A stretch of 64,000 nucleotides of DNA, from positions 25,255 through 89,254 of the forward strand of contig CAYJVR010000004.1 of assembly GCA_964373715.1 (NCBI GenBank), written 5' to 3'. Positions 1-34,540 of this stretch are shown here, in pieces. Position 1 is the stretch's first letter. Each line of letters starts with the position of its first letter. A model generated the notes under the pieces. The model was not told the origin of the DNA. It searched no databases and saw only the letters and a program-made list of their open reading frames with translations. Origin of the DNA: an uncultured Planctomycetia bacterium. GTDB lineage: Bacteria > Omnitrophota > Gorgyraeia > 1-14-0-20-64-10. A program made the position numbers and the translations under genes.

Positions 1-3000
1 TGTCCTGAACCTTCGCCTCTTCGAGGCCGGCGGTGACGATCAGGAACGGCTCTTCGTACGGCCCGGTGGCCTTCAGCCACTGGCCGCTCCGGGGATCGCG
101 AACCTGCGTCGTGAGAACGTACTCGGCAATCCGGCTTGGCGCTGGAAATTCAGCGTAAAACAGGCGGGACCCTTCGGGAAGGACCGCGTAAAGGCGCATC
201 GGCACGTTCACCGGCTTGTCCGGCTCCTCAACCTGCCAGAAAGTGGTCTGCACCTCCGCCTCGCCGTTCGAAACGGATGAGGGCACAACCTCCGCCCAGA
301 CCTGCACCTTGTCGCCAGGAACCCGGATCACCTTCTGCCGGACGCCGTGCTCACTACCACGCAGAGGCCGCATCTTGAGGATTCTTGGCTCAACGGTCCT
401 TTCGAAAGTGGTCCGGGTCCTCTTGCCCTGAGGATCATTGATGACTTTCTGGACGCGCGCATTGGTCGCCTGCGCTATTTCTCCGGCGTTGGCCAGCAAA
501 GCCTCGACGGTGACCGGCTGCCGGTCACGCCACTTTTCGCCGAGCGCGTTGCCGGGAGGGGTGCTTCTAAAAGAGTTATCCAGCGCCATCCAATCCTGGT
601 ACATCACCAGCATGTGGTCCGCGGCGCTCCGAGTCAGCTTCATCAGCGAGGCGTCAAGAATCGCGGTGGCACGCGCTATCAGATTGCCTGCAGGGTACTG
701 AAACGAAGGGACTCTCAACTCTGCCCCAAGCACATGCTCCACCCGCTGAAGCTGTTCGCGGGTCGCACGGCTCTCCTGCTCCATCTCCAGGATATGGCCC
801 AACAACGTCGGTCCGTCATGGGTGCCGGTGAAGCCGTAGCTGTTTTCGGGATGCTCCAGAGTGCTCCAGAATCCGGGGTAGAAATTCGACATGCCGTACA
901 GCAGCAGGCGGATGCGCGGCAGCGCCAGTTCGTACCGGATCCTGGTGGCCGTGTCGAAAGCAGGGGCCCCTTCCGGGAAAGTCTCCGGGACAACCTCTCC
1001 CAAATGGTCAAACGTGACGATCTTCTGGAACTTTTGCATGAAGTCATGGCCCGGACCATCCACATACTGGGCATCGAGCATCCTCATAATCAGGTGAATC
1101 CAGATCTCGAGGTCTCCCCTGTCCCGGCCCTCGGGATCGGTCTTCATCAGGAATTCCCGCTCGAGTTTCTCCCTCGTGTTGGCGTCGGAAAGGGTCGGGG
1201 TTACCTGCTGCCATCCCCTTTGGGTCAGTGTGCCCATTCCGCGCAGGTCCGCGTAGGTCCCATCAAGAAGGATGAAACCAGTGGATTGGTACCTTGGCTC
1301 GTTCGGTCCCCAGACCAAGCGCCCCTGCTGGCGGATCACGGCGACAACCCCGTTGGCGAAAGAAGCCCGGTCGAAGAGAGGCTCATTAGGAGTCGGCGCG
1401 GCCGGCAGGGGGTAAAGCCTCTCGTCCATGATCGCCTGCCGTATCTTCTGCTCGAATTCCGCCCGGTTCTGGACCGGGGTTAAGGGAAAGGGTTCTCCCG
1501 GATATTTGGCGTCCCACGCGCTCTTCAACCGCTGGAACAGGTCCCTCAGCGGGATGTTGGGGTTGCCGCCGGTCCACTTGGCCACGTCGGTCGTAGCCGG
1601 GATCCGGAAATAGGTGCCGTAGCCGACCCAGTAGTCGGCCCGCACGTCGTCGAAAAGACCCGCGTACCGGCGGACACGGGCCATGTGGAGCGGATACCCC
1701 AGCCCCTTCTGCCCCGCCCAATCGTATGTCGGCGATCCGAAATCCTGGCCAACAACCGAATAGACGTCCACCGCCGCCCCCGACACGCCGTTGGCATCCG
1801 ACGCCTCCTGGAACATCCAGGCGGCGTCCCCATCCACGTAATGGGGCATGTCCCCCATGATGCGGATGCCCTTCTGATGGGCACGGTAAAGAAGGGCTTT
1901 CCACTGTTCATCCCAGACGAACTGGACGTACTCGTAGAATTGAACTTCGTCCGTGTGCTCCCGGCGCCATTTATCAATAGCCGCCGGATCCCGACGCTTA
2001 AGATCTTCATTCTTCCATTTCTTCCACCCCTCCCGCTCGGCGCCCGCGATTGTCATGAACGACGTGTAGCCGTTGAGCCAATAGGCTTCCTTTTCGCGAA
2101 ATTCATTGAAGGCCCGGGTCCTCGCCTCGTCTTTGTTCAGCACATTGTCCCGAAAATAGCGGTAGGCGGACCGGAGCACGTCCAGCTTGCCGCGCATCAC
2201 CGGTGGGTAGTCCACCTTCGGCTGGCCGCGCAACTTCGAGGCAGTGTTCGCAATGTAGGTATCGTACATCTGGCGCGCGTCGGCCGACGCCGTGACCTCC
2301 GAAACTCGCCGCAGCCCGATGAAGTTGATGTTGCCCGCAAACGCGGAGCGGGTGAGATACGGGGAGGGGTCCAGGTCGTCCAGGTCCCAGACCGGCATCA
2401 CGTACAGCTGCTGCATGCCCTGGCCGGCCATCCAGTCAATCAGTTTCTCGGTGGCGGGCATGTCCCCGATCCCTTCATCCTCTTCGGAGCGGACCGAGTA
2501 CATCGGCGTAATGTGCCCGACTTTCCGGGCTGCGATGCTTTGAGGATAAGCTTCCGTCGGCACGCCGATCTCCCTGGCAATCTGGAGCAGTTGTTCCACC
2601 TGGTCCGGAGAAACGATCGTCTTCAGCAGAGAACCCAAACTGTCAAAATAACGGCCGGAAGGACTGTTTGGCTGGTAAGCCCACCGGTAAGCGGCCCATT
2701 CAACCAGAAGTTCCCTGGCGAACTGGTCCACCTGGGCGGGGGTAGTCTGCGCGGCGGCAACGAGCGCGTTGAGGCGGGCCTTCAGCAGCGGCGGAACCGG
2801 GCCGAGCGTGCTAGTCTCCCCATCCAGTGTCAGCGTGTGATGAAGGACCAGATGGGCCTCCTCGCGCAATTCCTCGTCTGTGATGAGACTGATCGTTTTG
2901 CCGATCACCTCTTCCAATCCGGGAAGCGAGGGGGGCTTCCCGACCCGCGAAATACGGTCCAAAAGAACCGGATAGGGAAGGAAGGGTTCGGGTTGGGAAA

Positions 3001-3190
3001 CAGGATTCCCGGTCAATCGGCTTAACGTCCGGGTCAGCGGCCCCTTTCCGGAGACGAGCAGCGCATCCCGCAAATCGGCCGCCTGCTCCGGCGCCTCCGG
3101 CTGGCTGGGACGTAAAGCCCAGGCCTGAGGGGGCAGAAAAAGGGAGATTGTTAAGAAAAGTGCCGTCAATTGGGACAATAATCTTCTCAT
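1..3190 (-). CDS. GH77-like 4-alpha-glucanotransferase (amylomaltase) domain protein with N-terminal hydrophobic leader and extra N-terminal region; 3'-partial, C-terminus lies beyond the window start
   Basis: Reverse-strand frame is open from ATG (3190..3188) to position 1, and no stop-terminated minus ORF is listed here. Translation contains amylomaltase signature blocks: FREKEAYWLNGYTSFMTI, QWKALLYRAHQKGIRIMGDMPHYV (compare Thermus GIRIIGDMPIFV), DVRADYWVGYGTYFRIPA (compare VRIDHFRGFEAYWEIPA) and GFTGTHDGPT (compare YTGTHDNDT). N-terminus is MRRLLSQLTALFLTISLFLPPQAWALRP... with a GLEE motif near residue 95. The visible C-terminal end is ...TAGLEEAKVQD. Confidence 0.7.
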   Translation of the reverse strand, partial: MRRLLSQLTALFLTISLFLPPQAWALRPSQPEAPEQAADLRDALLVSGKGPLTRTLSRLTGNPVSQPEPFLPYPVLLDRISRVGKPPSLPGLEEVIGKTISLITDEELREEAHLVLHHTLTLDGETSTLGPVPPLLKARLNALVAAAQTTPAQVDQFARELLVEWAAYRWAYQPNSPSGRYFDSLGSLLKTIVSPDQVEQLLQIAREIGVPTEAYPQSIAARKVGHITPMYSVRSEEDEGIGDMPATEKLIDWMAGQGMQQLYVMPVWDLDDLDPSPYLTRSAFAGNINFIGLRRVSEVTASADARQMYDTYIANTASKLRGQPKVDYPPVMRGKLDVLRSAYRYFRDNVLNKDEARTRAFNEFREKEAYWLNGYTSFMTIAGAEREGWKKWKNEDLKRRDPAAIDKWRREHTDEVQFYEYVQFVWDEQWKALLYRAHQKGIRIMGDMPHYVDGDAAWMFQEASDANGVSGAAVDVYSVVGQDFGSPTYDWAGQKGLGYPLHMARVRRYAGLFDDVRADYWVGYGTYFRIPATTDVAKWTGGNPNIPLRDLFQRLKSAWDAKYPGEPFPLTPVQNRAEFEQKIRQAIMDERLYPLPAAPTPNEPLFDRASFANGVVAVIRQQGRLVWGPNEPRYQSTGFILLDGTYADLRGMGTLTQRGWQQVTPTLSDANTREKLEREFLMKTDPEGRDRGDLEIWIHLIMRMLDAQYVDGPGHDFMQKFQKIVTFDHLGEVVPETFPEGAPAFDTATRIRYELALPRIRLLLYGMSNFYPGFWSTLEHPENSYGFTGTHDGPTLLGHILEMEQESRATREQLQRVEHVLGAELRVPSFQYPAGNLIARATAILDASLMKLTRSAADHMLVMYQDWMALDNSFRSTPPGNALGEKWRDRQPVTVEALLANAGEIAQATNARVQKVINDPQGKRTRTTFERTVEPRILKMRPLRGSEHGVRQKVIRVPGDKVQVWAEVVPSSVSNGEAEVQTTFWQVEEPDKPVNVPMRLYAVLPEGSRLFYAEFPAPSRIAEYVLTTQVRDPRSGQWLKATGPYEEPFLIVTAGLEEAKVQD

Positions 3191-3696
3191 TTAATTAATG
3201 TTCCTGGGGTTGTTCGTTCTAGGCTTCTCGGATTGGAGTCTTGTTAATTATACCTGGTTTTAGATATTTGTTCAAGTCGCGCACAAAATTCTCTGTAACT
3301 TATTTAAATTAAATATCTTATGTATTTATAGTTTTGTGTTAATTAACGACTCTCCTCCTCCCGGAATCGCAAAATTATACCCTGCCTACCTTGATATTCC
3401 GGGCCGCCGTCAGGCATACTTGGGCTAGCAGTTCGGGATATCTGTATCCGTTAGCACATTCTCGATAAAGGCAAACCTCCGCCACAAGTCGTTGGCGGAC
3501 GCGCCAAGATGTGTGGCGCGCAGTGAAAGCTGGGGACGCAAAACCTCGGGCCCTCAAAGAAACGATGGAAAGGGCAGCCGGGTTACCGAAAGAGTGTTCA
3601 ATGGCTTTAAAGCCCGTTCAAAAGAAGCGGTATCGCCCGGTTTCCAAAGGGGAGATGCCGCTTTGCCGTTTTCTGCCCTTCCCCGGAGCAATCCAA

Positions 3697-4553: not shown

Positions 4554-6053
4554 TTACAGCGCGAGCCGTTTCAAGAAATTCTTCGCGGGAGGGAACCCCG
4601 GGTCGATTTTGAGGGCCCGGTGGTAAGCCTCGGCTGCCTCTTCCCGTTTTCCCGATTTTTCGAGCACCATACCGAGCGCCGTGTGCGCTTTCGCCTTGAG
4701 GTTTTCCGGAGCCGACCGAACCGCTTCCCTGGCCTGCCCGGCCGCTTCCTCCAACCGTCCTTCATGATAGAGCGCGAAAACCAAGTTGAGCCGGGCCCGG
4801 CTGTTCCCGGGGCGGTGCATAACGGTGTGTTCCAGCACGGCGATCTCCGTGGCGTAAAGGGCATTCTGCCGGACCGTCAAAAATCCGAAACAGAGAACCG
4901 CCGCACCAAGAAGACCCGGCGCGGCGTATTTCCGGACGGCGGAGGACGGAACCCTCCGAAGCAGTTCCCATCCGGCCAGCACCGCCGCCGTGAGAACGGC
5001 GCACAGAGGCATGTACATCCGGAATTCCGCGGCAACCTCGGACGGGATCGGAACGAAACTGGAGGTGGGAGCCAGGATAAAAAAGAACCAGACGCCTAGC
5101 ATGCCGGCCGGCTTGTTTTTCAGCGTCAACCAGAGAGTGGCCGCCAGCCCGCACAGCACGATTGAGGCCGGGACGATCACCTCGGAGAGTGTCCTGGCAA
5201 TCGGCCAGTCAAAATAATCGATCACGAGAGGATCCGGCCAAAAAACCAGTCGGAGATAATGGAGGATCACCCCCGATTGGGTGAGCAGGTAATCCCACGC
5301 GGTCACGTCCGACAACAAGTTGAACCCGACTGACTTGCCCCGCGGACCGCTCGCCACGATGAAAATCATGATCCCTAAGGTAACGGCCAACCCGCGGTAA
5401 AAAGCGGGCCGGCGCCGGAGGGCTTCCCGCCATGACCCGCTGAAAAATGCCCTGTCATAGAGAAAGACGATGAGCGGGGCGGACACCATGACCTCCTTGC
5501 TGATCATACCGAGCGCGCAGGCAAGAACAGCGGCGGCCTCCCAACCGGGCGCTTTCCCCGACCTAAAAACCCGGAGTGAACAATAGAGGGTAGCCAGATA
5601 AAAAAATCCCATGAGGAGTTCCGAGCGGGCGGACAAATAGGTAACGGCACCGACCGTCAATGGGTGAACCACCCATAACAGCGAGACCGCGAAAGCCAGC
5701 ACGGAGGAAGTCGCGCCGTACCGCCGCTCAAGAGGAGAACTTTGGAAGATCTGCCTGAGAATAGCAAACAGCAGCAGCCCGCACAGCAGGTGGAGAATAA
5801 TGTTCAGAACATGGTACCCCGGCCCCTTGAGGCCGTGCAGCGCGTAATTCAGCGCGAAAGAGAACGCGACAGCGGGCCTTCCGGAAAGACCCCTCTCCGG
5901 CGGACAATCGAAAATAAAGGCCGGCGGCCAGAGATGGCGGACAGCCGGGTTATTGGCAATCGAAGCGAAATCGTCGAACACGAACACCCCGGACAGGCTA
6001 TTGAGGTAAACGGCACCGCCGACAGCGATAATAATCCAGGGGAAAATGCTCAC
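4554..6053 (-). CDS. TPR-repeat integral membrane protein, TMTC/DUF1736-like (putative GT-C type protein O-mannosyltransferase-like)
   Basis: 499 aa. N-terminal FVFDDFASIANNP motif typical of TMTC/DUF1736 proteins, multiple TM segments, C-terminal TPR repeats (...EEAAEAYHRALKIDPGF...). Confidence 0.6.
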   Translation of the reverse strand: MSIFPWIIIAVGGAVYLNSLSGVFVFDDFASIANNPAVRHLWPPAFIFDCPPERGLSGRPAVAFSFALNYALHGLKGPGYHVLNIILHLLCGLLLFAILRQIFQSSPLERRYGATSSVLAFAVSLLWVVHPLTVGAVTYLSARSELLMGFFYLATLYCSLRVFRSGKAPGWEAAAVLACALGMISKEVMVSAPLIVFLYDRAFFSGSWREALRRRPAFYRGLAVTLGIMIFIVASGPRGKSVGFNLLSDVTAWDYLLTQSGVILHYLRLVFWPDPLVIDYFDWPIARTLSEVIVPASIVLCGLAATLWLTLKNKPAGMLGVWFFFILAPTSSFVPIPSEVAAEFRMYMPLCAVLTAAVLAGWELLRRVPSSAVRKYAAPGLLGAAVLCFGFLTVRQNALYATEIAVLEHTVMHRPGNSRARLNLVFALYHEGRLEEAAGQAREAVRSAPENLKAKAHTALGMVLEKSGKREEAAEAYHRALKIDPGFPPAKNFLKRLAL

Positions 6054-6087
6054 GCGCCCATTCTAACAAAACAGGGCTGACGTCCTC

Positions 6088-6963
6088 TTAAAAAGTAACC
6101 CGGCCCCGCTTAGCCCTTAACTCGTTCATCCCTTTTTGTTGTTGCTTCATCTCTCTCTGGAGCTGCTTTATCTGCCCGTTCAACTGTTCAATGTAGATGT
6201 GAGCTTTCTCCAGCTCCTCCAATATCCCGCGCTGCGAAGCGGCAATATCCACGAACTCTTGCCCGGACTCGTCGAATTGAATCTGAGGAACCGCCCTCAG
6301 ATGGCTGCTCTCCCACATAAAGGCCGCATGCTCCTCAATCGACTCCAGAACATAACCGGGTTGAAACACATAGTCGGCATGGAGCACTCCTCCGCGCTGG
6401 TAAATCGGCCCGTTCACATCCAGCTTGGCAGAGGGATGCGGGTTGGTCGTTCCGATCCCAACGTTGCCGGTGCTTGCTTTAATGACCAGGAGATTGGCTC
6501 CATTGTTGTAAAAAGAAAAATCCTCGTTATTCCCCGCCTGACCGGTTCCAACAAGCCATTTATCAACTCCTGCCGTAGCGAACCTCACTAAGGCAACATC
6601 TGACGTACGATCCCTGCTGAGTCTCAACGAGACAGAATCCGGAGAGTCGATGATGAACGCCGGGTTCCCCCTCGAATGGGCCGCCTCAATAGCGAGCATT
6701 GCCGTCGGATTTGTCGTCCCGATCCCAATCTCTCCGGAGACCGCGAATCGGCCGTTTGGAAAGGATTCGCCATGATGTCTGTAAGACGCCCCGATGGTGC
6801 CCTTATTGGAGTGGAACCGGTTGAAATCTCCGTCGGTGGCAGCTGGGGCCGGGTAATAGGTAACGAGCTCCACCGTCTCTGCCCACGCAAAGCTCACCAA
6901 GACACTGAGAAACAGCGCGCCGCCTATTGCATGTATCTTCCAAATCCGTCCCGTGCAAGCCAT
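6088..6963 (-). CDS. secreted tail-fibre-like repeat protein (GIGTTNP repeats) with C-terminal coiled coil
   Basis: 291 aa. Signal peptide ...LSVLVSFAWA/ETVELVTYYPAPA. Repeats SGEIGIGTTNPTAMLAI and GNVGIGTTNPHPSAKLDV. C-terminus IEQLNGQIKQLQREMKQQQ is coiled-coil. N-terminus is paralogous to the 62695..64000 protein. Confidence 0.6.
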   Translation of the reverse strand: MACTGRIWKIHAIGGALFLSVLVSFAWAETVELVTYYPAPAATDGDFNRFHSNKGTIGASYRHHGESFPNGRFAVSGEIGIGTTNPTAMLAIEAAHSRGNPAFIIDSPDSVSLRLSRDRTSDVALVRFATAGVDKWLVGTGQAGNNEDFSFYNNGANLLVIKASTGNVGIGTTNPHPSAKLDVNGPIYQRGGVLHADYVFQPGYVLESIEEHAAFMWESSHLRAVPQIQFDESGQEFVDIAASQRGILEELEKAHIYIEQLNGQIKQLQREMKQQQKGMNELRAKRGRVTF

Positions 6964-24466: not shown

Positions 24467-26044
24467 CTAATGTCTGAAGTGACGTTCTCCGGTGAGCAAC
24501 ATCGGAATCTTCGCTTTTTCGGCGATTTTGATCACCTCCGGATCCTGCACCGAACCTCCCGGCTGAACAATCGCCTTAACACCGGCTTTTACGGCGAACT
24601 GAGGCCCATCCGGTTTCGGAAAGAAACCATCGCTGGCTAAAACAGCTCCCTTGGAACGGGCTCCGGCTTTCTTTAAAGCAATCTTTACGCTGTCCACACG
24701 ACTCATCTGTCCGGCTCCGATACCGACAACCTGCTCATCCTTCACGAGAACAATCGCGTTCGACCGGACAAACCTCGAGACTGTCCAGGCAAAAGCCAGA
24801 TCTCGCCGTTGGGCTGCCGTCGGTTTCACACGGGTCGCTGTGCGCCACTGAGAAGGTTTGACAATCATCCTGTCCGGCTGCTGAACGAGAAGGCCGCTTG
24901 TCACCTGCTTGATGTCCAAACACCCGGAGGGAGGCCGAGTCGAAGAGAGCGGCGCTTCAATCAACCGAAGGTTTTTCTTTCTCTTAAGGATATTGAGCGC
25001 TTCCGCCGAGTAGCCCGGAGCCACGACGCACTCCATAAAACCAGCCTTAATAATCGCCTTGGCGGCCGCTTTATCCACCGTCCGGTTTAAGCCCACAATA
25101 CCGCCGAAGGCAGAAAGAGAATCCCCGGCAAATGCCCGTTCAAAAGCCTTGGCCAATGTCGGAGCACAGGCAGCACCGCACGGATTGGTGTGTTTGATCA
25201 CCGTCGCGGCCGGTTTTTCAAAAGCGGCGGCCACCTCCAAAGCAGCACTCAAATCCAACAGATTGTTGAACGACAGCTCTTTCCCGTGGAGCTGCTTCAA
25301 ATTCCCGCAGCCGTTTGAACCGCTTGCCGCGGAAGGCCACTGGTACCAGCTTCCTCGCTGGTGAGGATTCTCCCCATAGCGGAGGATCTGCCTCCTTGAA
25401 ACGGCTAAAACAAGATGGTCCGGCCACCGCGAATCCCCTTTGGCGTGGCGCGAGAGTCCCTGGCAGATCACGCTGTCATAGTAAGCAGTCTCCGAAAAAG
25501 CGACAACGGCCAGCTTCAGTCGAGTTTCTTCCGACAGGCACCCCCCTTGGCGCCGCAACTCCTCTAGAACCGCCGGATACTGGGAAGGGCACGAAATGAC
25601 ACCGACCGACTCGAAATTCTTAGCGGCGGAACGGATAAGGGCAACCCCTCCAATATCGATTTGTTCGATCAGCTCACGCAGCTTCACCCCTTTCTGCCGC
25701 GTTGTCTCTTCGAACGGGTAAAGATTCACAATGACAAGGTCTATCAGCTTCAGCCCGAGCCTCTTGACCTGTTGAAGATGCCCTTTGTCATGGCGCTTGG
25801 CCAAGATTCCGCCGTGCACTTTAGGGTGAAGCGTCTTGACGCGGCCTGCTAAAATTTCGGGAAACCCCGTAAAATCAGATATCTCCTGGACCGGTATTCC
25901 CCCTTCCTGCAAAAGTTTCGCCGTTCCTCCGGTTGAGATGACCTGAATCCCCATCTCTCTCAAACCGCGGATAAACGGAACAAGATCTCTCTTATCCGAC
26001 ACCGAAACAAGCGCCCTTTTTATTTGGACTCTCTTGGGGCTCAT
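24467..26044 (-). CDS. purH: bifunctional AICAR transformylase / IMP cyclohydrolase
   Basis: 525 aa. N-terminal MGS-like domain ALVSVSDKRDLVPFIRGLREMGIQVISTGGTAKLL and C-terminal AICARFT domain. Confidence 0.9.
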   Translation of the reverse strand: MSPKRVQIKRALVSVSDKRDLVPFIRGLREMGIQVISTGGTAKLLQEGGIPVQEISDFTGFPEILAGRVKTLHPKVHGGILAKRHDKGHLQQVKRLGLKLIDLVIVNLYPFEETTRQKGVKLRELIEQIDIGGVALIRSAAKNFESVGVISCPSQYPAVLEELRRQGGCLSEETRLKLAVVAFSETAYYDSVICQGLSRHAKGDSRWPDHLVLAVSRRQILRYGENPHQRGSWYQWPSAASGSNGCGNLKQLHGKELSFNNLLDLSAALEVAAAFEKPAATVIKHTNPCGAACAPTLAKAFERAFAGDSLSAFGGIVGLNRTVDKAAAKAIIKAGFMECVVAPGYSAEALNILKRKKNLRLIEAPLSSTRPPSGCLDIKQVTSGLLVQQPDRMIVKPSQWRTATRVKPTAAQRRDLAFAWTVSRFVRSNAIVLVKDEQVVGIGAGQMSRVDSVKIALKKAGARSKGAVLASDGFFPKPDGPQFAVKAGVKAIVQPGGSVQDPEVIKIAEKAKIPMLLTGERHFRH

Positions 26045-26685: not shown

Positions 26686-27427
26686 TCTTCCCCCTCAGTT
26701 TTGACATTAACCGGCGGGTGACGGGACCAGGCACAATCTCCCCAATCCGGCGGCCGTCCACCTCACGGATAGGGAGAAGCCTCATCAAAACGTTGGTAAG
26801 AAAAGCCTCATCCGCGTTAAACAGGTCATGGCGCGTTACCGGAACCTCTTTCACCGGGATCTTCAGACGCCGGGCCGCCTGAAGGACCTTCTTTCTCGTG
26901 ATCCCTTCCAAAACGCCGACCCATGCCGGCGGCGTAAAAAGCGTTCCCTCTTTCACAAAAAAGAAGTTGGAAACCGTCCCCTCGGTAAGGAGACCGTGGG
27001 AACCAAGCCGAAGGACATCAAACGCCTCTCCCCCCTCGCAGCGGGCAAGAATGCTGGAAAGCCTTTCCGAATGTTTCGACAGAGACCGCGCCGTTTCCCC
27101 GGACGGCCAGCGAGTCGGAACTGTCCTGAGCCGGACCCCCCACTTCTGAAGCGCAGGCGTGTAACGGGTCCGCGCAGAAGCGTGCAAAACCGTTCTTCTC
27201 TCGCCGTACCGGTTGACCGTAACACGAACATAACCGCTGCCGATCCGCCGGGCCTCTCTGCGGATTTCGGCCGCCAAATTATCTTGTCCGTAAAAATCAA
27301 CGGCCAACGCATGAAGAGATTCGTTGATCCGTTGAATATGTTCCCTCAGATTCACCGGCCGGCCGTTTTCCACCCGGATCGTTTCAAAACAACCGGAGGA
27401 ATCAAACAGCTCAGGAACTGGACGCAT
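26669..27427 (-). CDS. pabC: class IV aminotransferase fold protein, probable aminodeoxychorismate lyase
   Basis: 252 aa with fold-type IV PLP-enzyme features (...EAFLTNVLMRLLPIREVDG...). Overlaps pabB by 17 nt. Confidence 0.65.
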   Translation of the reverse strand: MRPVPELFDSSGCFETIRVENGRPVNLREHIQRINESLHALAVDFYGQDNLAAEIRREARRIGSGYVRVTVNRYGERRTVLHASARTRYTPALQKWGVRLRTVPTRWPSGETARSLSKHSERLSSILARCEGGEAFDVLRLGSHGLLTEGTVSNFFFVKEGTLFTPPAWVGVLEGITRKKVLQAARRLKIPVKEVPVTRHDLFNADEAFLTNVLMRLLPIREVDGRRIGEIVPGPVTRRLMSKLRGKNATIR

Positions 27428-28904
27428 GCGCTACAAGCTCCCACGCAGGAGAAGAGTTGCTTCGAAAAGCATCCATGAGAGCTTGGGCTTTATGAACCGT
27501 TTCATCATACTCCCTGGAAGGGTCCGAATCGGCCACGATTCCGGCGCCGGCCTGGACATAGACCGTCTCATTGACCGCCAGGCCGGTGCGTATAAGCAGG
27601 TTCAAATCGCTGTCGCCCGTATAGCTGATGTAACCCAAAGAACCTGTGTAAAGCTGGCGACGAACCGGCTCTAGGGAATCGATGACCTTCAAGCACGCAA
27701 TCTTCGGGCATCCGGTAATTGTCCCGCCCGGGAACGCGGCGGCGATAAGATCCACCGGCCGGACACCGGGACGCAAAAAACCCTTCACGTTCGAAACAAT
27801 ATGGATAACGTGGGAAAACTCCTCCAGCACCATCAGTTCATCCACCCGAACCGAACCGGCTCGGCAGACACGGCCGAGGTCGTTCCTCTCGAGGTCCACC
27901 AACATCAGATGCTCCGCCCGTTCCTTCTCGTTTAAAATCAACTCTTGGCGCAAGCGGGCCGTTTCAACGGCAGTTTTGCCCTTTGGCCGCGTTCCCGCAA
28001 TCGGCCTGGTTTCCACTTCTCCCGCCGAAACCCTTAAAAACCGCTCCGGGGAGGCTGAGATGACCTGCAAAAAACCAAGATCGGCGTAACAGGCGAAGGG
28101 AGAGGGGTTGATTTCTGTCAAACGGCGGTAGAACTCCCAAGGGCTCTGCGTTAACGGCATCGAGAAACGCTGGGAAAGGTTCGCCTGGTAGATCTCTCCA
28201 TCGGCAATGAACTCTTTAGCGCGGCGCACCATCGCCTCGAAATCGGCCCGCGTGTGGGTGCTGGAAAAAGACACGGGGCGGAGGGCAAGAGACGGGGGAC
28301 GTTCATTTTGCACGGAACGAGTGATCCTCTTGAGGAGTGCCTCTGCCCGGCCGGCCGCTTGATCATACGCTTGCGCCGGATTCCTGCCCGCGTCAGCGAG
28401 AACAATCACCCAGAGCTGTTTCTTTAGATGGTCTAAAAGCACCGATTCGTCACAGAAAAGGAATCCTATATCCGGCAACCCCAGATCATCCTGCGCTTTT
28501 GAGGCAAGCGGTTCAATGGTGCGGTACGCGTCAAACCCGAAGAAACCAATCGCCCCACCGACGAAGGGGGGAAACCCGGGGATTTTGGCTGCCGGTTTCG
28601 CGTCCAGCATCTGCTGTAAAAGCTCCAGCGGGTTGCCGGTCATCTGTTCGGTTCCCTTTTGGCCGACCAGCGTGATCCGGTCTCCTTTAGCAGTAAGAAA
28701 TAAGGCCGGCTCCCCCACCATCAGGCTGTACCGGCCGGTGACCGGATGAAATCGGGCCGATTCCAGAAGGACAGCCGGGGATTTCCACGCAGCGGCCGCG
28801 AAAAAATCCTGCGGCGAGGCTTCCAGAGAAAGCTTCGCCGCCACGGGGATCCACCGATGGGTCAAGGCTAATTCAAGAAATTTCCAACGGGAAGGTGTGA
28901 ACAC
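27411..28904 (-). CDS. pabB: aminodeoxychorismate synthase component I (chorismate-binding enzyme, TrpE/PabB family)
   Basis: 497 aa. Chorismate-binding C-terminal domain motifs (GAIGFFGFD, RGxYTGSLGYIS, PGGTITGCPK). Adjacency to pabC and folC supports a folate role over a tryptophan role. Confidence 0.75.
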   Translation of the reverse strand: MFTPSRWKFLELALTHRWIPVAAKLSLEASPQDFFAAAAWKSPAVLLESARFHPVTGRYSLMVGEPALFLTAKGDRITLVGQKGTEQMTGNPLELLQQMLDAKPAAKIPGFPPFVGGAIGFFGFDAYRTIEPLASKAQDDLGLPDIGFLFCDESVLLDHLKKQLWVIVLADAGRNPAQAYDQAAGRAEALLKRITRSVQNERPPSLALRPVSFSSTHTRADFEAMVRRAKEFIADGEIYQANLSQRFSMPLTQSPWEFYRRLTEINPSPFACYADLGFLQVISASPERFLRVSAGEVETRPIAGTRPKGKTAVETARLRQELILNEKERAEHLMLVDLERNDLGRVCRAGSVRVDELMVLEEFSHVIHIVSNVKGFLRPGVRPVDLIAAAFPGGTITGCPKIACLKVIDSLEPVRRQLYTGSLGYISYTGDSDLNLLIRTGLAVNETVYVQAGAGIVADSDPSREYDETVHKAQALMDAFRSNSSPAWELVAHASSS

Positions 28905-28921
28905 AAAGACTATTTTATCAC

Positions 28922-28971
28922 GCGGCGGTGTCGTTAGAAAATGGAAGCGGCCTTAAACTGGATCTCCAGCC
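28922..28971 (-). terminator. rho-independent terminator downstream of kamA (minus strand)
   Basis: 11-bp perfect stem aagcggcctta / taaggccgctt with a 16-nt loop. On the minus strand it is followed by ccattttct. Confidence 0.5.
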
Positions 28972-28996
28972 TAAGGCCGCTTTACTTACAAGTTAC

Positions 28997-29056
28997 GACC
29001 GCCGAGGGACCGCGAAGCGGTCCGAGGAAGTAGTTGAGCGTTCCTTACGCTCAGAC
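28997..29056. repeat. about 60-nt structured stem-loop element, copy 1 (abuts kamA stop codon)
   Basis: gaccgccgagg-GGACCGC-gaa-GCGGTCC-g-AGGAA-gtagttgagcg-TTCCT-tacgctcagac: two hairpins. About 85% identical to 33457..33517. Confidence 0.5.
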
Positions 29057-30285
29057 TACGGGATATAATCCTGGAACCCATGGAAACCGTTTCCGCTGCC
29101 ATTCCCGTTGCCGTTAAACTTGATGCGATTCTTTAACGCGACCGGCTGGCCCGCGGGAACCAGTTCGAGCTCCCCCAATTCCGTCTCATAGTAGGTGTAC
29201 TCTTCCCCTTTGAAGTTCCGGAGCCGGATTACACCGTTCTCATAGGAAAGGACGTAGCTGGGAGCCACGGGAATTTTGCCTCCACCGCCTGGGCCGTCAA
29301 TCACGTAGGTCGGCACCGCATAGCCGGTCGTGTGACCGCGCAAGGCCTCCATGATTTTGATCCCGGTGGATACCGAGGTGCGGAAATGACTGATCCCCTG
29401 CGCAGGGTCGCACTGGTAGATGTAATACGGCCGCACCCGGACTTTCAGAAGCTCATGCATCAGCTTCCTCATCACCTGCGGATCGTCGTTCACCCCTTTT
29501 AACAGCACCGTCTGGGACCCGAGAGGAACACCGCTTTCGGAAAGCATGTCCATTGCCTGCTTCAAGCGGGGCGTAACCTCCTTGGGATGGCAGAAATGCA
29601 AGCTCATCCAGATCGGCTTGTTCTTCTTTAAAACCGCGCAGTACTCTTCGGTAACCCGCTGTGGCATCGTAACCGGGGTGCGGCTTCCTATCCGGATGAA
29701 CTCAATATGGTCAATCTTGCGCAGTTCGGCCAAAATCCGGTCCAACCGGACATCCGTCATCATCAGGGGATCCCCTCCGGAGATGAGGACATCCCGCACC
29801 TCTTTGTGCTCCCTCAAATACTGAAAAGCCGGCTCATAGCTGTTCATCAACCCGTTGTTGACGCCGACCAGCCGCCGCCGGGTACAGTGCCTGCAGTACA
29901 TAGCGCACTGTTCGGTGACCAAGAAAAGGACCCGGTCCGGATACCGGTGAACCAGCCCCTTGACCGGCATATCTCCATCCTCACCGCAAGGATCCCGCAT
30001 ATCATGCGGCCCGATTTCGAACTCGACCGATGTCGGAACAGCCTGCTTGCGGATCGGGCAGTTCGGATCCTTCGGGTCCATCAGGGAGGCCCAGTACGGC
30101 GGTATCGCCATCACAAGCCGGCCCTCTTTTCTTGCAACCGCTTCCTCCTCTTCCGGCGTCATCTCGATAATCTGCCTGAGCTGGTCTGCCGTGTAGATAC
30201 GGTTCCGCAACTGCCACTGCCAATCATCCCACTCCTCGGGTGTCACACTCTTCCAGAGCGGTATACGGCGGTAACTGTCGTCCAA
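29056..30285 (-). CDS. kamA: KamA-family radical SAM lysine 2,3-aminomutase
   Basis: 409 aa. CxxxCxxC radical-SAM motif CAMYCRHCTRRR and full-length KamA architecture. C-terminal tail NGNGNGSGNGFHGF. Confidence 0.8.
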   Translation of the reverse strand: MDDSYRRIPLWKSVTPEEWDDWQWQLRNRIYTADQLRQIIEMTPEEEEAVARKEGRLVMAIPPYWASLMDPKDPNCPIRKQAVPTSVEFEIGPHDMRDPCGEDGDMPVKGLVHRYPDRVLFLVTEQCAMYCRHCTRRRLVGVNNGLMNSYEPAFQYLREHKEVRDVLISGGDPLMMTDVRLDRILAELRKIDHIEFIRIGSRTPVTMPQRVTEEYCAVLKKNKPIWMSLHFCHPKEVTPRLKQAMDMLSESGVPLGSQTVLLKGVNDDPQVMRKLMHELLKVRVRPYYIYQCDPAQGISHFRTSVSTGIKIMEALRGHTTGYAVPTYVIDGPGGGGKIPVAPSYVLSYENGVIRLRNFKGEEYTYYETELGELELVPAGQPVALKNRIKFNGNGNGSGNGFHGFQDYIP

Positions 30286-30297
30286 GGTCTTCCTCCT

Positions 30298-31497
30298 TCA
30301 GATCGTCTTCCCGAGCTTTTTCCCATCGGACACAGCCGCGGGATTGCTCGAAGGCCCCGCCTCCTTCTCCATCGGGTCAGGGAGTACCCGATACGCTGGA
30401 GCTTGGGAGACCGGGTTGTTCGTTTTGAATGATGGTATGGATAAAACGGCGCCTAGCTCCGGAGACGGAGAGGACGCCGGCAAGCTCTTGTCGGATGGTT
30501 TATTCAAACGCACAACCGCAAGTTGTATGATCCGGCTGATGAGAGTCGCGTACGGAATGCCTGCCGCCTTGGTCATCATCGGGATGTTCGATTCTTCAGG
30601 ATCCAGCCCGGGCAGCGTGTTGACCTCAAGAACGTAAGGTATCCCTTCCTGGCTCAACCGGATGTCCACGCGTGAGAAATCGCGGCAACCCAAGGAAAAC
30701 GCCGCTTTCTTGGCCACCGTTCCAACCGCTTCGGCAGTGGACAAACTCAGCCGGGCCGGGCACCAGAATTTCGGGTCCAGGTGCATCTCCTTGTTTCCCT
30801 GGTATTCTTTCACCTTCCAAGAGTAGAACGATTCCCCCGCTGGCGCGCATGGGCTAAAATCAATCTCAAGAATAGGGAGCACCTCTTCCCCGAGCAATCC
30901 GACCGTCAGCTCGACCCCCTCGATAAATTCCTCGACCAGCACCTCCTGGCCGTAATCAGTGAAAACCCTTTGAATCTGTGCCCGGAGAGCCGCCTCGGAA
31001 CGAACAACGCTGCTCGTGAGTATTCCCTTACCGGAACCTTCCCTGTTTGGTTTGACAATCAGAGGGAACTGAAGCCGGCTGTCCAACGGTTCATCCAAAT
31101 GCGTGAAAACCTGGAAATTCGGCGTCGGTATGCCGACCGACCGGAAGATATATTTAGAACGGGCTTTGTCCAGAGACAAGGCCAGCGCGAGAACTCCGGA
31201 TCCGGTATATGGGATCTCCAGAAGCTCCAGCAGAGCCGGAACGCGCGCCTCACGGGCTTCACCGGAAAACCCCTCCGAGATATTGAACACGAGATCGACC
31301 GGGTTCTCAGCCAGCCAAAGAGGAAGCTTGCTATCCGCCTCAACCGGGAAAACCTTATGCCCCGCCAACTCGATCGCCTGAGTGATGTACCCAACCGTTT
31401 TCGGGCTGTCGCACTCGGAGTAGTAGTCAGCCGGCCTGCCTGCTTCCTTCACCAGAGGTTTCAAGTTATGGACCAGTGCCACACGCAAACTTTTCAT
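30298..31497 (-). CDS. D-alanine--D-alanine ligase family ATP-grasp enzyme with low-complexity C-terminal extension
   Basis: 399 aa. Ddl-like N-terminal (VALVHNLKP...), central and ATP-grasp domains (EEFIEGVELTVGLLGEEVLPILEIDF..., VDIRLSQEGIPYVLEVNTLPGL). Pro/Ser-rich tail of about 80 aa. Confidence 0.7.
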   Translation of the reverse strand: MKSLRVALVHNLKPLVKEAGRPADYYSECDSPKTVGYITQAIELAGHKVFPVEADSKLPLWLAENPVDLVFNISEGFSGEAREARVPALLELLEIPYTGSGVLALALSLDKARSKYIFRSVGIPTPNFQVFTHLDEPLDSRLQFPLIVKPNREGSGKGILTSSVVRSEAALRAQIQRVFTDYGQEVLVEEFIEGVELTVGLLGEEVLPILEIDFSPCAPAGESFYSWKVKEYQGNKEMHLDPKFWCPARLSLSTAEAVGTVAKKAAFSLGCRDFSRVDIRLSQEGIPYVLEVNTLPGLDPEESNIPMMTKAAGIPYATLISRIIQLAVVRLNKPSDKSLPASSPSPELGAVLSIPSFKTNNPVSQAPAYRVLPDPMEKEAGPSSNPAAVSDGKKLGKTI

Positions 31498-32519
31498 TTT
31501 GCCCGTGCGTTCACTTTCTGTTGGAATTGGGCGGTTGCCTGCTGAAACCCCAGACGCTTGACCGCCGCCTCGATGATTCGGCCGATCATCTGGGGATAGG
31601 TAATGCCAAGACGGTTACAAATGACCTGGAACACGTCCTCGGTGGAAAGGGACGGCAAAGGATTGATCTCCAGCACGTAGACGGAGCCTTCTCTGTCGAT
31701 CCGGAAATCAACCCGCCCAAGGTCAACGCAGTCCACCGCCCGGTAAACCCGGATGGCCAATTCCTGAAGTTTTTTCTCAACCCCCGCGTCAATCCGGGCC
31801 GGACAGATGTACCCTGCCCCCGAGGCAATTCTCGAAAAGGTGTAAAAAAGATCTCCCAAATCCGTCCGTCCGTCTATCGAGATCTGGACCACCGGCAGGG
31901 CTTCGGGCGGGTCATTGCCGACAACCGGCACGGTGAACTCCGTCCCTTGGATGAATTCCTCCACCAGAGCCGGCTCGCGATAAGTGGTCATGAGCCATTG
32001 CGTTTGCGCGCGGAGCTCTTCGACGTTGTGGACGACGGATTTATCGGAAATCCCCTTGCTGGAACCTTCAAAACGGGGCTTGACGATCAGCGGGAAGGAA
32101 ATATCCGGCGGAAGCTGCTGGCCGGGGTCATGGACTTCAAAGAAACGGGGCGTCGGGATCCCTTCTCCGAGGAAAATTCTCTTGGCCATCACCTTGTCCA
32201 GCGTCAGAGCCTGGGTGAGGCCGTCCGATCCGACGTAGGGAATACCTTTCATCTCAAGAAGGATCGGAACCTGCGACTCCCGGTTCCTTCCGCGGAGACC
32301 TTCGGCGACGTTGAAAACCAGGTCCACCCTAACATCATCGAGCTTCTTCAACAGCTGTTCGGCGCTGCCCAGGCGAACCACGGTGTGGCCGAGCGAGGCG
32401 ATCGCGTTTTCGATCACTTCGATGGTTGAAGGGTGGTCAAATTCGGCATTGGCATCCGGGGGATCTCCAACCTTGAAGACATACTCCGTCTTCAAATCAT
32501 AGGTCATCCCGATGATCAT
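31494..32519 (-). CDS. D-alanine--D-alanine ligase family ATP-grasp enzyme (second, divergent paralog)
   Basis: 341 aa. Same domain order (EEFIQGTEFTVPVVGNDPPEALPVVQISIDG..., VDFRIDREGSVYVLEINPLPSL). ATGA overlap with the downstream paralog. Confidence 0.7.
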   Translation of the reverse strand: MIIGMTYDLKTEYVFKVGDPPDANAEFDHPSTIEVIENAIASLGHTVVRLGSAEQLLKKLDDVRVDLVFNVAEGLRGRNRESQVPILLEMKGIPYVGSDGLTQALTLDKVMAKRIFLGEGIPTPRFFEVHDPGQQLPPDISFPLIVKPRFEGSSKGISDKSVVHNVEELRAQTQWLMTTYREPALVEEFIQGTEFTVPVVGNDPPEALPVVQISIDGRTDLGDLFYTFSRIASGAGYICPARIDAGVEKKLQELAIRVYRAVDCVDLGRVDFRIDREGSVYVLEINPLPSLSTEDVFQVICNRLGITYPQMIGRIIEAAVKRLGFQQATAQFQQKVNARAK

Positions 32520-32820
32520 CGCGTCCCCCGGCGAACAAAAAGAGGAGCTCCCTCACACAGGTCGCCCCCCTTCAAACGTGCGATTGTATTCAATTGTGAG
32601 GGTCTGACTACCTCCTCTTCACTTTATCCGAAAACTTAGTGATCGGTCTGCTGATCAAACTCTTGCACCCCAGGCCGAACATCAAAGCAAAACCAATTCA
32701 TCGAAAAGATATTCTTAAGAAAAAATAACATGAGTGTCTGACGTTGTCAAGTTCGAACGAAGAAAAATTTATTCCCGCCGACGGAAATGATTACAATAGG
32801 AACTTCGAGAAGGAGGTTCT

Positions 32821-33447
32821 ATGGCAACTTTAATACTGGTCAGGCATGGACAGTCTCAATGGAATTTAGAGAACAAATTCACCGGGTGGGTGGATGTTCC
32901 GTTGACCGATAGCGGGCGCGCAGAGGCGCGGCGGGCGGGAGAACTCGTCAAACCGCTGGGCATCACATTCGACGTCGCTTACACATCGGTCCTCGTTCGG
33001 GCGAACGAAACCCTCTCCATCATCCTCGAGGTCCTCGGGCAGGAAAATATACCGGTGATCAAAGACAAAGCGCTTAACGAACGGCATTACGGAAAACTGC
33101 AGGGTCTCAATAAAGAAGAAACAGTCAAGAAGTACGGCGAGGAGCAGGTTAAAATCTGGCGGCGAAGCTACGACGTGGCCCCTCCCGAGGGTGAATCGCT
33201 CAAAGACACGGCCGCCCGGACCCTTCCCTATTTCGAATCGCGCATCCTGCCTGACCTTAAAACCGGCAAGAATGTGCTCATCGCCGCGCACGGAAATTCG
33301 CTCCGCTCCATCGTGATGGACCTGGATAAGCTCACGAAAGAACAGGTGCTCGCGCTGGAGCTGGGGACCGGCGTCCCGGTCCGCTACGAGATCAATCCTG
33401 ATGGATCTGTAAAATCAAAACAGATCCTCTCTCCCGCCATTCGTTAG
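32821..33447 (+). CDS. gpmA: 2,3-bisphosphoglycerate-dependent phosphoglycerate mutase
   Basis: [24 protein letters not shown] catalytic-His motif. 208 aa. RBS GGAGG upstream. Confidence 0.9.
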
Positions 33448-34540
33448 ATACTCGGTGACCGTCGAGGGGCCGCGGAGCGGCCCGAGGAAATGGTTGGGCG
33501 TTCCTTACGCCCAGACCATGAAGTCGAAGCAGATTCTCGCGCCGACCGCGGCACAATAACCTGATTCACCCCTTCTCTGCCCAGTTTCCTCGAATAGTGG
33601 AAGAGGTACTGCTGGGCCCAGCCGCAGTAAGGACCGAAATGCTTCCGGGCGAACTCGCGTATCTTTCTATCCGGCACCTTCCTGTTCCGGAAATACCAGC
33701 GCCGCATGCACCGCGCGATCCAGACATCCACCGGGAAGGCCGATTCCCGTCCGTAGCCGAAGAGCATCACGCATTCCGCCACCTTCTGGCCGATCCCGGG
33801 GATCTCCATCAGCGCTTCCCGCAGCGCGTCATCTTCCAGTCCCTTTAACTTTTCCGGATCGATCCGGCCTGAGGCATGCATCCGGGCCGCCGCCTTCAGG
33901 TAGGGCGCCCTGTAGCCAAGCCCGCACGCCCGCAGCTCATTCTCGGATACACCAGCCAATCTCTCAGCCGTCGGAAAGCGAGGAGTGGTGTTGGGCGGGA
34001 GATCGCGGGTGACGCCTGCGGAGATGCCCTTTCTAGCCGCGCGCAGTTCCGCAGACCCTTCTCTCTTGTTTAGTGGGGTCGAGGACTGTCTGAGCACGGC
34101 GAAAGGGCGCTCTGCAAGCGGCAGGACCCGCGACCGGTTCTCCATAACGCTCGGCGAGGCAGTTCAGCATGCCGGTCAAGCGAACGATGTTGTTGTAGGC
34201 CGAGAGGATGAAGCTGGCCGTGCACTCCCACGACTCCTGCCGGATCAGCCGAAGCCCCCAGTGGGAGCGGCAGGCTTCATGGATGATCGGATCGACATCT
34301 ATTTGAGCGGCGAGCGCCGGCAGATCGACGTCGAGAGAAAAAAAGCGGCTGATCGCCTCTGGGGACGCCCCATTGAAAAAGATCTGCCCGCCGCTCTGGG
34401 AAATCCGCACGCGGGAACCGGTGAGCCAGCCCTCGAACCATCCGGGCTGGGATTGAGACCACCTGAAGACCTGGCCGGAAAACAAAGTCGCCTGCAGGTC
34501 AAAATCCCTGCAGGCGATTGTTTGAAATTCCGTTCGAACG
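33444..34540 (-). pseudogene. ogg: 8-oxoguanine DNA glycosylase (OGG family, HhH-GPD) with an apparent frameshift between the N-terminal and HhH-GPD domains
   Basis: OGG N-terminal domain (ATLFSGQVFRWSQ...LAERYGEPV) is in one frame, ending at the stop at 34033. The HhH-GPD part (FPTAERLAGVSENELRACGLGYRAPY...LMEIPGIGQKVAECVMLFGYG...FPVDVW) is in another frame, 33444..34145. No ATG exists for the N-terminal part downstream of the dcd stop; a TTG start is possible. The start coordinate is approximate. Confidence 0.5.
33457..33517. repeat. about 60-nt structured stem-loop element, copy 2 (between convergent gpmA and ogg stops)
   Basis: gaccgtcgagg-GGGCCGC-gga-GCGGCCC-g-AGGAA-atggttgggcg-TTCCT-tacgcccagac. 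Stem 1 differs from copy 1 by two compensatory changes (A to G and T to C) that preserve pairing. Confidence 0.5.

Follow-up and report, generated by a model that had tools for sequence, protein, structure and literature searches.

The 64,000-nt stretch of DNA analyzed here (the window; positions 25,255 to 89,254 of the forward strand of contig CAYJVR010000004.1, GenBank assembly GCA_964373715.1) comes from an uncultured bacterium whose KamA homologs place it in Candidatus Omnitrophica (Omnitrophota). It carries two copies of a 63-nt element made of two hairpins, copy A at the 3' end of a kamA gene and copy B where a gpmA gene meets an ogg-like gene tail to tail. Further copies were recovered from metagenomic contigs, and the best explanation of the whole set, to which we give a probability of about 0.7, is a family of selfish, non-autonomous repeats of the same kind as repetitive extragenic palindromic (REP) sequences, mycobacterial interspersed repetitive units (MIRUs), and Rickettsia palindromic elements (RPEs), with hairpins that would serve the repeat's own propagation at the DNA level.

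Two copies of a double hairpin at the ends of kamA and ogg

At the first site, kamA (positions 29056 to 30285, minus strand) encodes a KamA-family radical SAM protein of 409 amino acids with the Pfam domains Radical_SAM and LAM_C. Copy A (28997 to 29059, with the plus strand as its model orientation) adjoins the end of this gene. A reading made from the sequence alone, without database searches, had placed it directly after the kamA stop codon. It does abut the gene, but the present stop codon, TAG (29056 to 29058, minus strand), lies within the last four bases of copy A and comes from the end of the element. A relic TAA (28993 to 28995, minus strand) is found 63 nt, or 21 codons in frame, downstream of the new TAG. 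Removal of positions 28997 to 29059 rejoins kamA as ...ATC CC|G TAA, and the empty orthologous site of a related contig (L012) reads ...ATT CCG TAA. Readthrough of the kamA stop codon into the element was considered and rejected, the shared frame being the trivial outcome of a 63-bp insertion upstream of the old stop.

At the second site, gpmA (32821 to 33447, plus strand), encoding a histidine phosphatase family protein of 208 amino acids, ends in a TAG (33445 to 33447) located 9 nt before copy B (33457 to 33519, no strand assigned). The opposing ogg-like open reading frame (ORF; 33444 to 34145, minus strand) encodes an HhH-GPD glycosylase of 233 amino acids. The sequence-only reading had copy B starting 10 nt after both convergent stops; the distance to the gpmA stop is 9 nt, and the copy lies inside the ogg ORF, which reads through it to a stop at 33444 to 33446. 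It is translated in frame as Ogg residues 209 to 230 (SWSGRKERPTISSGRSAAPRRS), three codons before the stop, and removal of 33457 to 33519 gives an Ogg tail of ...ASTS-PSI followed by the stop codon. Because deleting each copy restores a normal gene end, both act like clean insertions of 63 bp (21 codons) at the very 3' ends of genes on the minus strand.

Directly after copy B, and antisense to the ogg tail, lies a relic second 3' end of gpmA (KSKQILAPTAAQ plus a stop; 33521 to 33559, plus strand). The last 12 gpmA codons are thus present twice around the copy, in use at 33409 to 33447 (plus strand) and as the relic. The two tails differ mostly at synonymous positions, and the relic is antisense to the ogg tail just as the true gpmA end is in a related contig, L014. 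The peptide KSKQILSP had only two matches of at least 7 of 8 residues among 127,948 six-frame windows, and these were the two gpmA tails. This arrangement suggests that copy B came together with a foreign gpmA 3' end, by recombination, rather than by simple insertion. The ogg-like ORF itself has the HhH-GPD domain only, as does its counterpart in the related contig L015 (211 amino acids), whereas the L014 ortholog (5378 to 6304, 308 amino acids) also has an OGG_N domain; the window gene may be N-terminally truncated or frameshifted, with about 410 nt upstream that carry no gene assignment.

The two copies, each 63 nt long, are identical at 53 of 63 positions (84%), which confirms the earlier observation of two similar elements at these places. 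They share one fold, as RNA or as DNA and on either strand, consisting of a 10-nt tail, hairpin 1 (7 bp with a 3-nt loop), a linker, and hairpin 2 (12 bp with one bulged G and the loop TCCTT). In copy A, the tail spans 28997 to 29006 (GACCGCCGAG), hairpin 1 spans 29007 to 29023 (loop GAA), the linker spans 29024 to 29029 (GAGGAA), and hairpin 2 spans 29030 to 29059. The corresponding parts of copy B are at 33457 to 33466, 33467 to 33483 (loop GGA), 33484 to 33489, and 33490 to 33519. The strands of hairpin 2 are GTAGTTGAGCGT / ACGCTCA-G-ACTAC in copy A and ATGGTTGGGCGT / ACGCCCA-G-ACCAT in copy B. Four base pairs show compensatory changes between the copies, three of them in hairpin 2 and one in stem 1, where the change between GGACCGC/GCGGTCC and GGGCCGC/GCGGCCC had been read correctly from the outset. 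Folded as DNA, copy A reached -18.5 kcal/mol on the plus strand and -18.4 kcal/mol on the minus strand, with z scores of about -5.

A covariance model (CM) built from this pair gave scores of 95 to 97 bits (copy A, 94.9 bits; copy B, 96.6 bits) with E values of about 1e-19 for the 64-kb window, in which no other sequence scored above 13 bits. A 27-nt degenerate core pattern likewise matched copies A and B only, with 0 matches in the window expected from 100 shuffles, and no further copy was found in the approximately 5 kb past the right window edge. A search of the whole window against Rfam at the gathering score assigned no family to either copy, and at an E value of ≤10 the region around copy A gave microRNA-model noise only, on the neighboring hairpin.

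Distribution, structure, and settings of the family

Three syntenic contigs were compared by covariance model, namely, L012, L014, and L015, with KamA proteins showing 88%, 82%, and 81% identity, respectively, to that of the window. The kamA site is filled in the window and empty in all three relatives. The gpmA/ogg site is filled in the window and in L012, with different flanks, and unoccupied in L014 and L015; the two genes of L014 overlap tail to tail without the element. Relative to the window copy, hairpin 1 of the L012 copy shows two additional compensatory pairs and its hairpin 2 a swap from G-C to C-G. The loops are altered as well, and both the gpmA stop (TAG) and the ogg stop (TAA) lie in the hairpin 1 loop, making the element wholly "coding." Given these differences in occupancy at the two sites, the element is sporadically present at orthologous positions. 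L015 has a gene for an AAA_14/DUF4143 ATPase (2488 to 3636) between ogg and gpmA, where the window and L012 have the repeat, and for this reason the gpmA/ogg junction looks like a recurrent insertion site.

A pattern scan of metagenomes, anchored on hairpin 1 and its flanks, yielded 83 loci, among which the CM recognized 22 full-length copies at 69 to 97 bits plus one truncated copy. These copies come from three groundwater-type data sets (OBEQ01/GCA_900206355, JGI Ga0209515, and JGI1358J11329), and their flanking proteins are closest to those of Candidatus Omnitrophica. A second CM (R2), built from 22 copies, gave bimodal scores, with 24 copies at 79 to 94 bits, one partial copy at 44 bits, and all else at or below 31 bits; about 55 of the 83 metagenome matches belong to this last group and were rejected as chance matches in G+C-rich DNA. 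The sole partial copy (L098, 4283 to 4326) is a truncated unit beside a full one. Units are 63 nt long in all copies but one, which has 64 nt (L012/L038), and the two unlike hairpins always occur together. The sequence-only reading had listed a REP-like element among its options and had named a lack of further copies in the genome, combined with a lack of RNA-seq transcript ends at these positions, as grounds for refuting its view of the element; further copies do exist.

Used as a query against 1.8 billion representative proteins, the plus-frame translation of copy B led to a PMT_2 glycosyltransferase (P0241) whose called N terminus contains four tandem 21-residue units. The underlying DNA (L120, NCBI GCA_023248015.1) holds four head-to-tail 63-bp units, in which the hairpin 1 core CCGC/GCGG is replaced by CGGC/GCCG, a compensatory C-G to G-C swap in an otherwise invariant core. 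The metagenome pattern could not match this core variant, and the family is therefore broader than sampled. Besides the 4 units of L120, tandem arrays of 2 units (L062) and 1.7 units (L098) were found. The same protein search returned a 485-residue protein (P0242) that proved to be a false match, a three-frame translation of a repeat of about 36 nt with spacers (ASTGPRSSPRRW / LQRGRGLHRGDG / RFNGAAVFTAEM). It is almost certainly a CRISPR array wrongly called as a gene, and its weak likeness to the element peptide is coincidental. Five open-frame translations joined into one query gave no match in an index of 5.8 billion proteins, and the 18 matches of the pattern GACCGNCGAGGN{17,18}CGAGGAA in viral contigs were all judged by CM to be chance, with no phage link seen among them. 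The family is probably young and homogeneous, within a clade of groundwater Omnitrophota.

In an alignment of 22 copies, the consensus unit consists of the tail GACCGYCGAG, a G+C-rich hairpin of 7 bp, the linker GAGGAA, and a bulged hairpin of 12 bp ending in ...CAGACCAY. Little or no variation occurs in the unpaired tail, the linker, or the TCC of loop 2, and loop 1 varies freely. Standard pairs occupy 95.9% of the 418 pair cells of the alignment, and 8 of the 19 pairs change on both sides (43 cells); the observed values were reached in 0 of 500 column shuffles. Two pairs occur as three pair types each (A-U, G-C, and C-G), and sliding the partners by 1 to 3 columns lowered pairing to 24 to 38%. 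The case for a structure conserved through compensatory changes, first made from two copies, is far stronger across the 22. The second stem proposed at that time, AGGAA-N11-TTCCT, did not hold up: the real helix is the 12-bp one with the bulged G, and the AGGAA/TTCCT pairing is without any covariation and fails in 7 cells.

Watson-Crick pairs fill 399 of the 418 cells, and the exceptions are 2 G·T pairs, 5 A·C pairs, and 12 other mismatches, mostly purine-purine. An A·C on the model strand is a G·U on the opposite strand, and neither strand is enriched in G·U; both strands fold equally well as DNA. A structural RNA under selection would be expected to show many G·U pairs on one strand; the lack of such a preference fits a need for strict DNA complementarity. 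The mismatch pattern is also compatible with templated correction of quasi-palindromes. A small self-cleaving ribozyme and a tRNA-like T-arm were considered and rejected, as there were no core motifs of either and no Rfam match.

To describe the settings of the copies, genes were called with a codon-usage log-odds score trained on the window, and key ORFs were checked against Pfam. In orientation to local transcription, 9 copies are sense, 8 antisense, 3 convergent, and 2 divergent. Copies were found after the stop codons of opposite-strand genes (copy A, L063, L109, and L091), between convergent genes (copy B, L012, and L053), between divergent genes (L035 and L086), just upstream of start codons (L113, a NUDIX gene; L052, glgX), and in the stop/start junctions of operons (L098, wzy; L064, gatC/gatA; L090, recO/glyQ; and L120). 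The emphasis that the sequence-only reading had laid on gene 3' ends did not survive this wider sample, which includes copies in frame inside genes as well. Since members of the family sit in many settings and in both orientations, the restriction to 3' ends seen in the window is an accident of its two copies.

The clearest intragenic case is a unit only 2 nt different from copy B that lies in frame within argS, the gene for arginyl-tRNA synthetase (L097), in a variable linker at the start of the DALR domain, with the protein junctions ...YYIQYAHARICNILEN-DRRGAAKRPEEMVGRSLRPDH-QHLNAPEE.... At this point, nine Omnitrophota ArgRS orthologs (72 to 87% identity) have an unrelated linker of 13 to 15 residues, and the DNA reads AAT|unit|CAG in the filled gene versus AAT CAG in an empty one (L117). 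Other in-frame copies occur in a radical-SAM ORF (L039), in the tails of RecO (L090), a bactofilin (L062), and two Ogg proteins, and in gatA and wzy. For L039, the position within an ORF is taken from the Pfam domain span only, a PDB search with the radical-SAM protein having returned no homolog. The in-gene copies use four different reading frames on both strands. Five of the six frames are open in a typical copy, and copy A has stops in four of the six.

Two pairs of contigs share sequence beyond the unit. L113 and L052 (both reverse; units at 1320 to 1382 and 6832 to 6894, respectively), from two metagenomes, have 83 of 83 left-flank bases and 62 of 63 unit bases in common and diverge completely right after the unit, one into the NUDIX gene and the other into glgX; the break marks a rearrangement at the repeat, or else it is a chimera of the assembly. 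L035 (3880 to 3913) and L044 (343 to 376) share 34 nt more (GACCGCCGGGKAAATTATTAGTAGTAKATAAATC) on the minus strand just 3' of the unit, with unrelated left flanks. The shared 34 nt may represent a longer composite element or an adjacent second repeat, and its AT-rich part occurs nowhere else in the 0.83 Mb of DNA analyzed.

The surroundings of copy A in the window contain a second structure. A terminator-like hairpin of 17 bp followed by CCATTTTCTA (28945 to 28982, minus strand) begins 14 nt downstream of copy A in the kamA sense and is likely the real intrinsic terminator of kamA, separate from the repeat. The orthologous spacer of L012 (5070 to 5296) has a different long hairpin in its place, and because the two hairpins differ, spacers downstream of kamA appear to turn over quickly. 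The next gene of the kamA transcription unit encodes a PabB/TrpE-like chorismate-binding protein (27411 to 28904, minus strand), and the kamA-pabB spacer that holds copy A measures 212 nt. On the other side of kamA, two independent Logan assemblies (contigs L003 and L004, at position 1-14) break 13 nt upstream of its start, which hints at a repeat or strain variation just upstream of the gene. The sole Rfam family in the window is a c-di-GMP-I riboswitch aptamer (RF01051; 3460 to 3590, plus strand), with 49.1 bits against a gathering score of 35.

Insertion junctions and competing explanations

The two bases to the left of the unit are AT in 13 and AC in 4 of the 22 copies, and the same A-Y dinucleotide stands on both sides in 12 of them; in copy A, TAC is present on both sides. 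The base at -1 (T/C) tracks the first base of hairpin 2 (A/G) in 21 of the 22 copies (Fisher p = 2.3e-4); this could stem from a 2-bp duplication or crossover dinucleotide, mark a subfamily, or be due to guide-type pairing. In 10 of the 22 copies the right flank is similar to the 5' tail of the unit itself, and in 5 the left flank is similar to the unit's 3' end, each compared to 2.7% of control windows. This likeness points to partial neighboring units, to a preference for targets resembling a head-to-tail junction (...CAGACCAT|GACCGCCGAGG), or to both. In L120, the four units lie exactly inside an ATGA overlap, with the left junction keeping the upstream TGA and the right junction keeping the downstream ATG, and L098 is arranged in the same way, with a stop at unit position +2 and an ATG at -2. 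Insertion into such overlaps is harmless because the unit ends (GA... and ...AT) rebuild TGA and ATG.

The element is dispersed, is present or absent at orthologous sites, is inserted as exactly 63 bp, is amplified in tandem, and occurs in frame within genes, and its structure is conserved without bias of strand or orientation. From this pattern we infer strict mobility and recognition at the DNA level. Units would be added to the chromosome as exact 63-bp (21-codon) insertions, single or head to tail, beside an A-Y dinucleotide, and the favored targets would be gene boundaries, ATGA stop/start overlaps among them. Copy A would have entered the last codon or stop of kamA, and copy B a position nine bases before the ogg stop. 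Copies inside genes would be tolerated as 21-residue inserts or tail extensions, since most frames are open and the unit length is divisible by three. Propagation would be limited to copies whose stems are intact and fully Watson-Crick, and a trans-acting enzyme presumably recognizes the hairpins as folded single-stranded or cruciform DNA; the hairpins would be kept for propagation of the unit and not as a service to neighboring genes. Three routes of mobilization are candidates: single-strand transposition of the HUH/Y1 type, a small circle with a site-specific recombinase, and slippage together with homologous recombination of flanks. Hints of this third route come from the doubled gpmA 3' end and from the left flank shared between L113 and L052.

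Several observations weigh against a selfish repeat of this kind. In some 70 kb of the source genome, the copies number only two. About 13 native linker residues are replaced by the argS copy, which is not a clean addition, and simple transposition fails to account for the second, diverged gpmA tail next to copy B. The 2-bp "duplication," seen in 12 of 22 copies, is imperfect, and no longer duplication was seen outside the conserved unit. Terminal inverted repeats are absent, the ends GACCGCCGAGGG... and ...CGCCCAGACCAT not being reverse complements, and the element is therefore not a classical miniature inverted-repeat transposable element. No transposase was found between the inverted copies of L062, where only tsaD and a deacetylase gene are present, and a tblastn search of the 0.83 Mb gave no match to IS200 TnpA or to the Escherichia coli REP-associated tyrosine transposase (RAYT), which is a weak negative. 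In GTDB representative genomes, the pattern CCGAGGAAN8SSSTTCCTTASSS, which is too strict in the hairpin 2 loop, gave no true copy; its two matches (L005 and L006) were rejected as chance, having no hairpins. Metagenome assemblies could create false joins at repeats. Finally, templated (quasi-palindrome) correction can also produce compensatory changes in short DNA palindromes in the absence of selection.

The alternative that fares best, although we still regard it as unlikely, is a miniature element of the insertion sequence IS200/IS605 type (or of the REP/RAYT type) that a Y1 HUH transposase would move in the form of single-stranded DNA. Protein would bind hairpin 1 and the inner portion of hairpin 2, the outer 5 bp of hairpin 2 (RTRGT/ACYAY) would provide guide pairing to the cleavage site, and insertion would take place 3' of an A-Y target without true duplication. 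The lack of terminal inverted repeats and the hairpins at both ends agree with such an element, as do the conserved AY of the left flank, equal to the unit's last two bases, the covariation of base -1 with the first base of hairpin 2, the left flanks resembling the unit's 3' end, and strictly Watson-Crick stems suited to recognition as single-stranded DNA. The two hairpins of the element are unlike each other, however, and IS200/IS605 ends carry similar hairpins, as in IS608 and ISDra2. Neither tnpA nor a RAYT gene was detected in the 0.83 Mb by the tblastn search mentioned above, again a weak negative, and the covariation at -1 may simply mark a subfamily by descent. Head-to-tail arrays and tail-like right flanks fit a circle with a recombinase, or slippage, at least as well.

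A cis-acting RNA at mRNA 3' ends, with hairpins in the 3' untranslated region that block 3'-exonucleases or help termination and so stabilize or delimit the upstream mRNA, had been among the roles proposed from the two window copies and now appears improbable. Both of these copies abut stop codons, 8 to 10 members of the family have a stop codon no more than about 60 nt away, the hairpins form stable RNA structures (z scores of -2.6 to -3.75), and action of this type is mentioned for REPs of other bacteria in PMC3733652. Against this stand the near equality of sense and antisense copies and the presence of copies in 5' leaders, between divergent genes, and inside ORFs. A terminator scan found no U-tract at either window copy, its only match being the separate hairpin at 28982 to 28945, and neither strand is enriched in G·U. 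The orthologous kamA and gpmA/ogg sites of close relatives are empty, and no Rfam family was matched.

We think it similarly doubtful that the element is a host-domesticated DNA site, at which the unpaired motifs (GACCGYCGAG, GAGGAA, and the TCC loop) and the hairpins would bind a chromosomal protein, with the sites scattered through the genome for chromosome organization, as proposed for some REP elements and bacterial interspersed mosaic elements. Nucleoid-associated, gyrase-like, or recombination/repair proteins would be the candidates. Such a site would be consistent with unpaired segments that are invariant or nearly so while the stems covary, with the independence of orientation, and with the divergence of L113 and L052 exactly at the element's end, as if at recombination points. 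But the conservation of the unpaired parts is equally expected if they are recognized by a mobilizing enzyme, and a host site fits poorly with sporadic presence at orthologous loci, copies inside essential coding sequence, tandem arrays of up to four units, and a very young and homogeneous family.

A further possibility, bolder and to our mind a long shot, is that movement is guided by the structure itself, in a way so far undescribed for a unit this small. Pairing between the outer helix of hairpin 2 and the A-Y target would serve to read that target, and the evolved ends (GA... and ...AT) would let the unit home into ATGA overlaps and gene termini with neither gene broken, as a programmable "gene-boundary" parasite that possibly passes through a 63-nt circular intermediate. 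The covariation of base -1 with hairpin 2 would then be explained, because the outer helix reads the target.

Selection for a 21-residue peptide cassette (e.g., TAEGPRSGPRKWLGVPYAQTM) is scarcely credible: the unit has exactly 21 codons in all but one copy, its frames are open in most copies, and gene callers translate it within ArgRS, GatA, Wzy, PMT_2, bactofilin, Ogg, and RecO, but four frames on both strands are used, differing by gene, many copies are intergenic, copy A has stops in most of its frames, in the N-terminal cases translation probably begins at the ATG that follows the unit, and the stem covariation alters residues (G/S/R and A/T) and, being non-synonymous, places the constraint on pairing and not on the peptide.

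Relation to known repeats and consequences for Omnitrophota

REPs are found near or overlapping the ends of ORFs, where they donate stop codons, and between convergent or co-directional ORFs; they also occur inside genes, including tRNA synthetase and repair genes, in which they encode about 20 to 30 residues (Di Nocera et al. 2013, PMC3733652). The element shares with them a small size, dispersal, G+C-rich hairpins with a conserved unpaired tail, a mostly extragenic location near ORF 3' ends with some overlapping or intragenic copies, and occurrence as singletons, dimers, and clusters. It differs from them in being a 63-bp unit of two unlike hairpins, whereas a REP is one imperfect palindrome of 20 to 40 bp. 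Nor does it carry a GTAG/CGTC tag: its tail is GAC-CGNC-GAG with C, T, A, or G at position 6, the most variable tail base among the 22 copies, and copy A alone contains GTAG, where its hairpin 2 starts. Its stems lack the A-T first pairs of the CGTC families, it forms head-to-tail arrays, which are reported to be negligible for CGTC REPs (PMC3733652), no RAYT was found for it in the 0.83 Mb by the tblastn search, and its host phylum is the Omnitrophota.

MIRUs, in the summary of Supply et al. (1997) given in PMC3184786, are units of 40 to 100 bp that overlap the flanking ORFs in operons. As far as that summary describes them, the element is like them in size, in internal G+C-rich inverted repeats, in variable tandem arrays, and in empty and filled sites with short direct repeats, which suggest insertion. 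Its unit ends also overlap the flanking stop and start codons in L120, L098, and L064 (gatC stop/gatA start), though not in all copies. The sequences are unrelated, however, and the phylum is another one; the orientation of the element is not tied to transcription, and it also occurs between convergent genes and deep inside ORFs (argS and the radical-SAM gene).

RPEs are palindromic selfish repeats of Rickettsia that insert in frame into housekeeping genes (Ogata et al. 2000, as cited in PMC10969869). In-frame insertion into unrelated protein genes (argS, radical SAM, recO, ogg, and the bactofilin gene) is the trait in common. By the description in that source, RPEs are set apart by a length of about 105 to 150 bp, specificity for Rickettsia, and one conserved peptide and frame per family, whereas the element has 63 bp, uses at least four frames, and lies mostly at gene boundaries.

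Two further comparisons are with palindrome-associated transposable elements (PATEs), which are miniature elements derived from IS200/IS605, together with REP doublets forming hairpins (REPINs), and with intrinsic terminators. With PATEs and REPINs, the element has in common the lack of terminal inverted repeats, hairpins at the ends, a conserved short left flank, and probable structure as single-stranded DNA; it departs from them in its dissimilar hairpins, in its tandem arrays, which are atypical of both, and in that no parent insertion sequence or Y1 transposase was found. The two window copies resemble an intrinsic terminator in being G+C-rich hairpins just after a stop codon, but the element has no U-tract, is independent of orientation, and in copy A has a separate terminator-like hairpin beside it.

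We therefore regard the element as a bacterial repeat family that is new but of a known kind, and one apparently without an earlier description in Omnitrophota. As far as literature searches show, this compact 63-bp double hairpin is the first REP/MIRU/RPE-type family from the phylum. Covariation between repeat copies may reflect selfish propagation and not necessarily a host RNA function, which matters for the mining of structured RNAs. The family extends or interrupts real proteins (Ogg, ArgRS, RecO, GatA, and a radical-SAM enzyme) and marks at least one apparent synteny breakpoint, and for these reasons it affects gene calling, protein-length annotation, and the assembly of metagenome-assembled genomes in this phylum. 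The precise fit of the unit into ATGA overlaps provides a simple system, found in nature, in which to ask how small repeats come to select insertion sites that do no harm.

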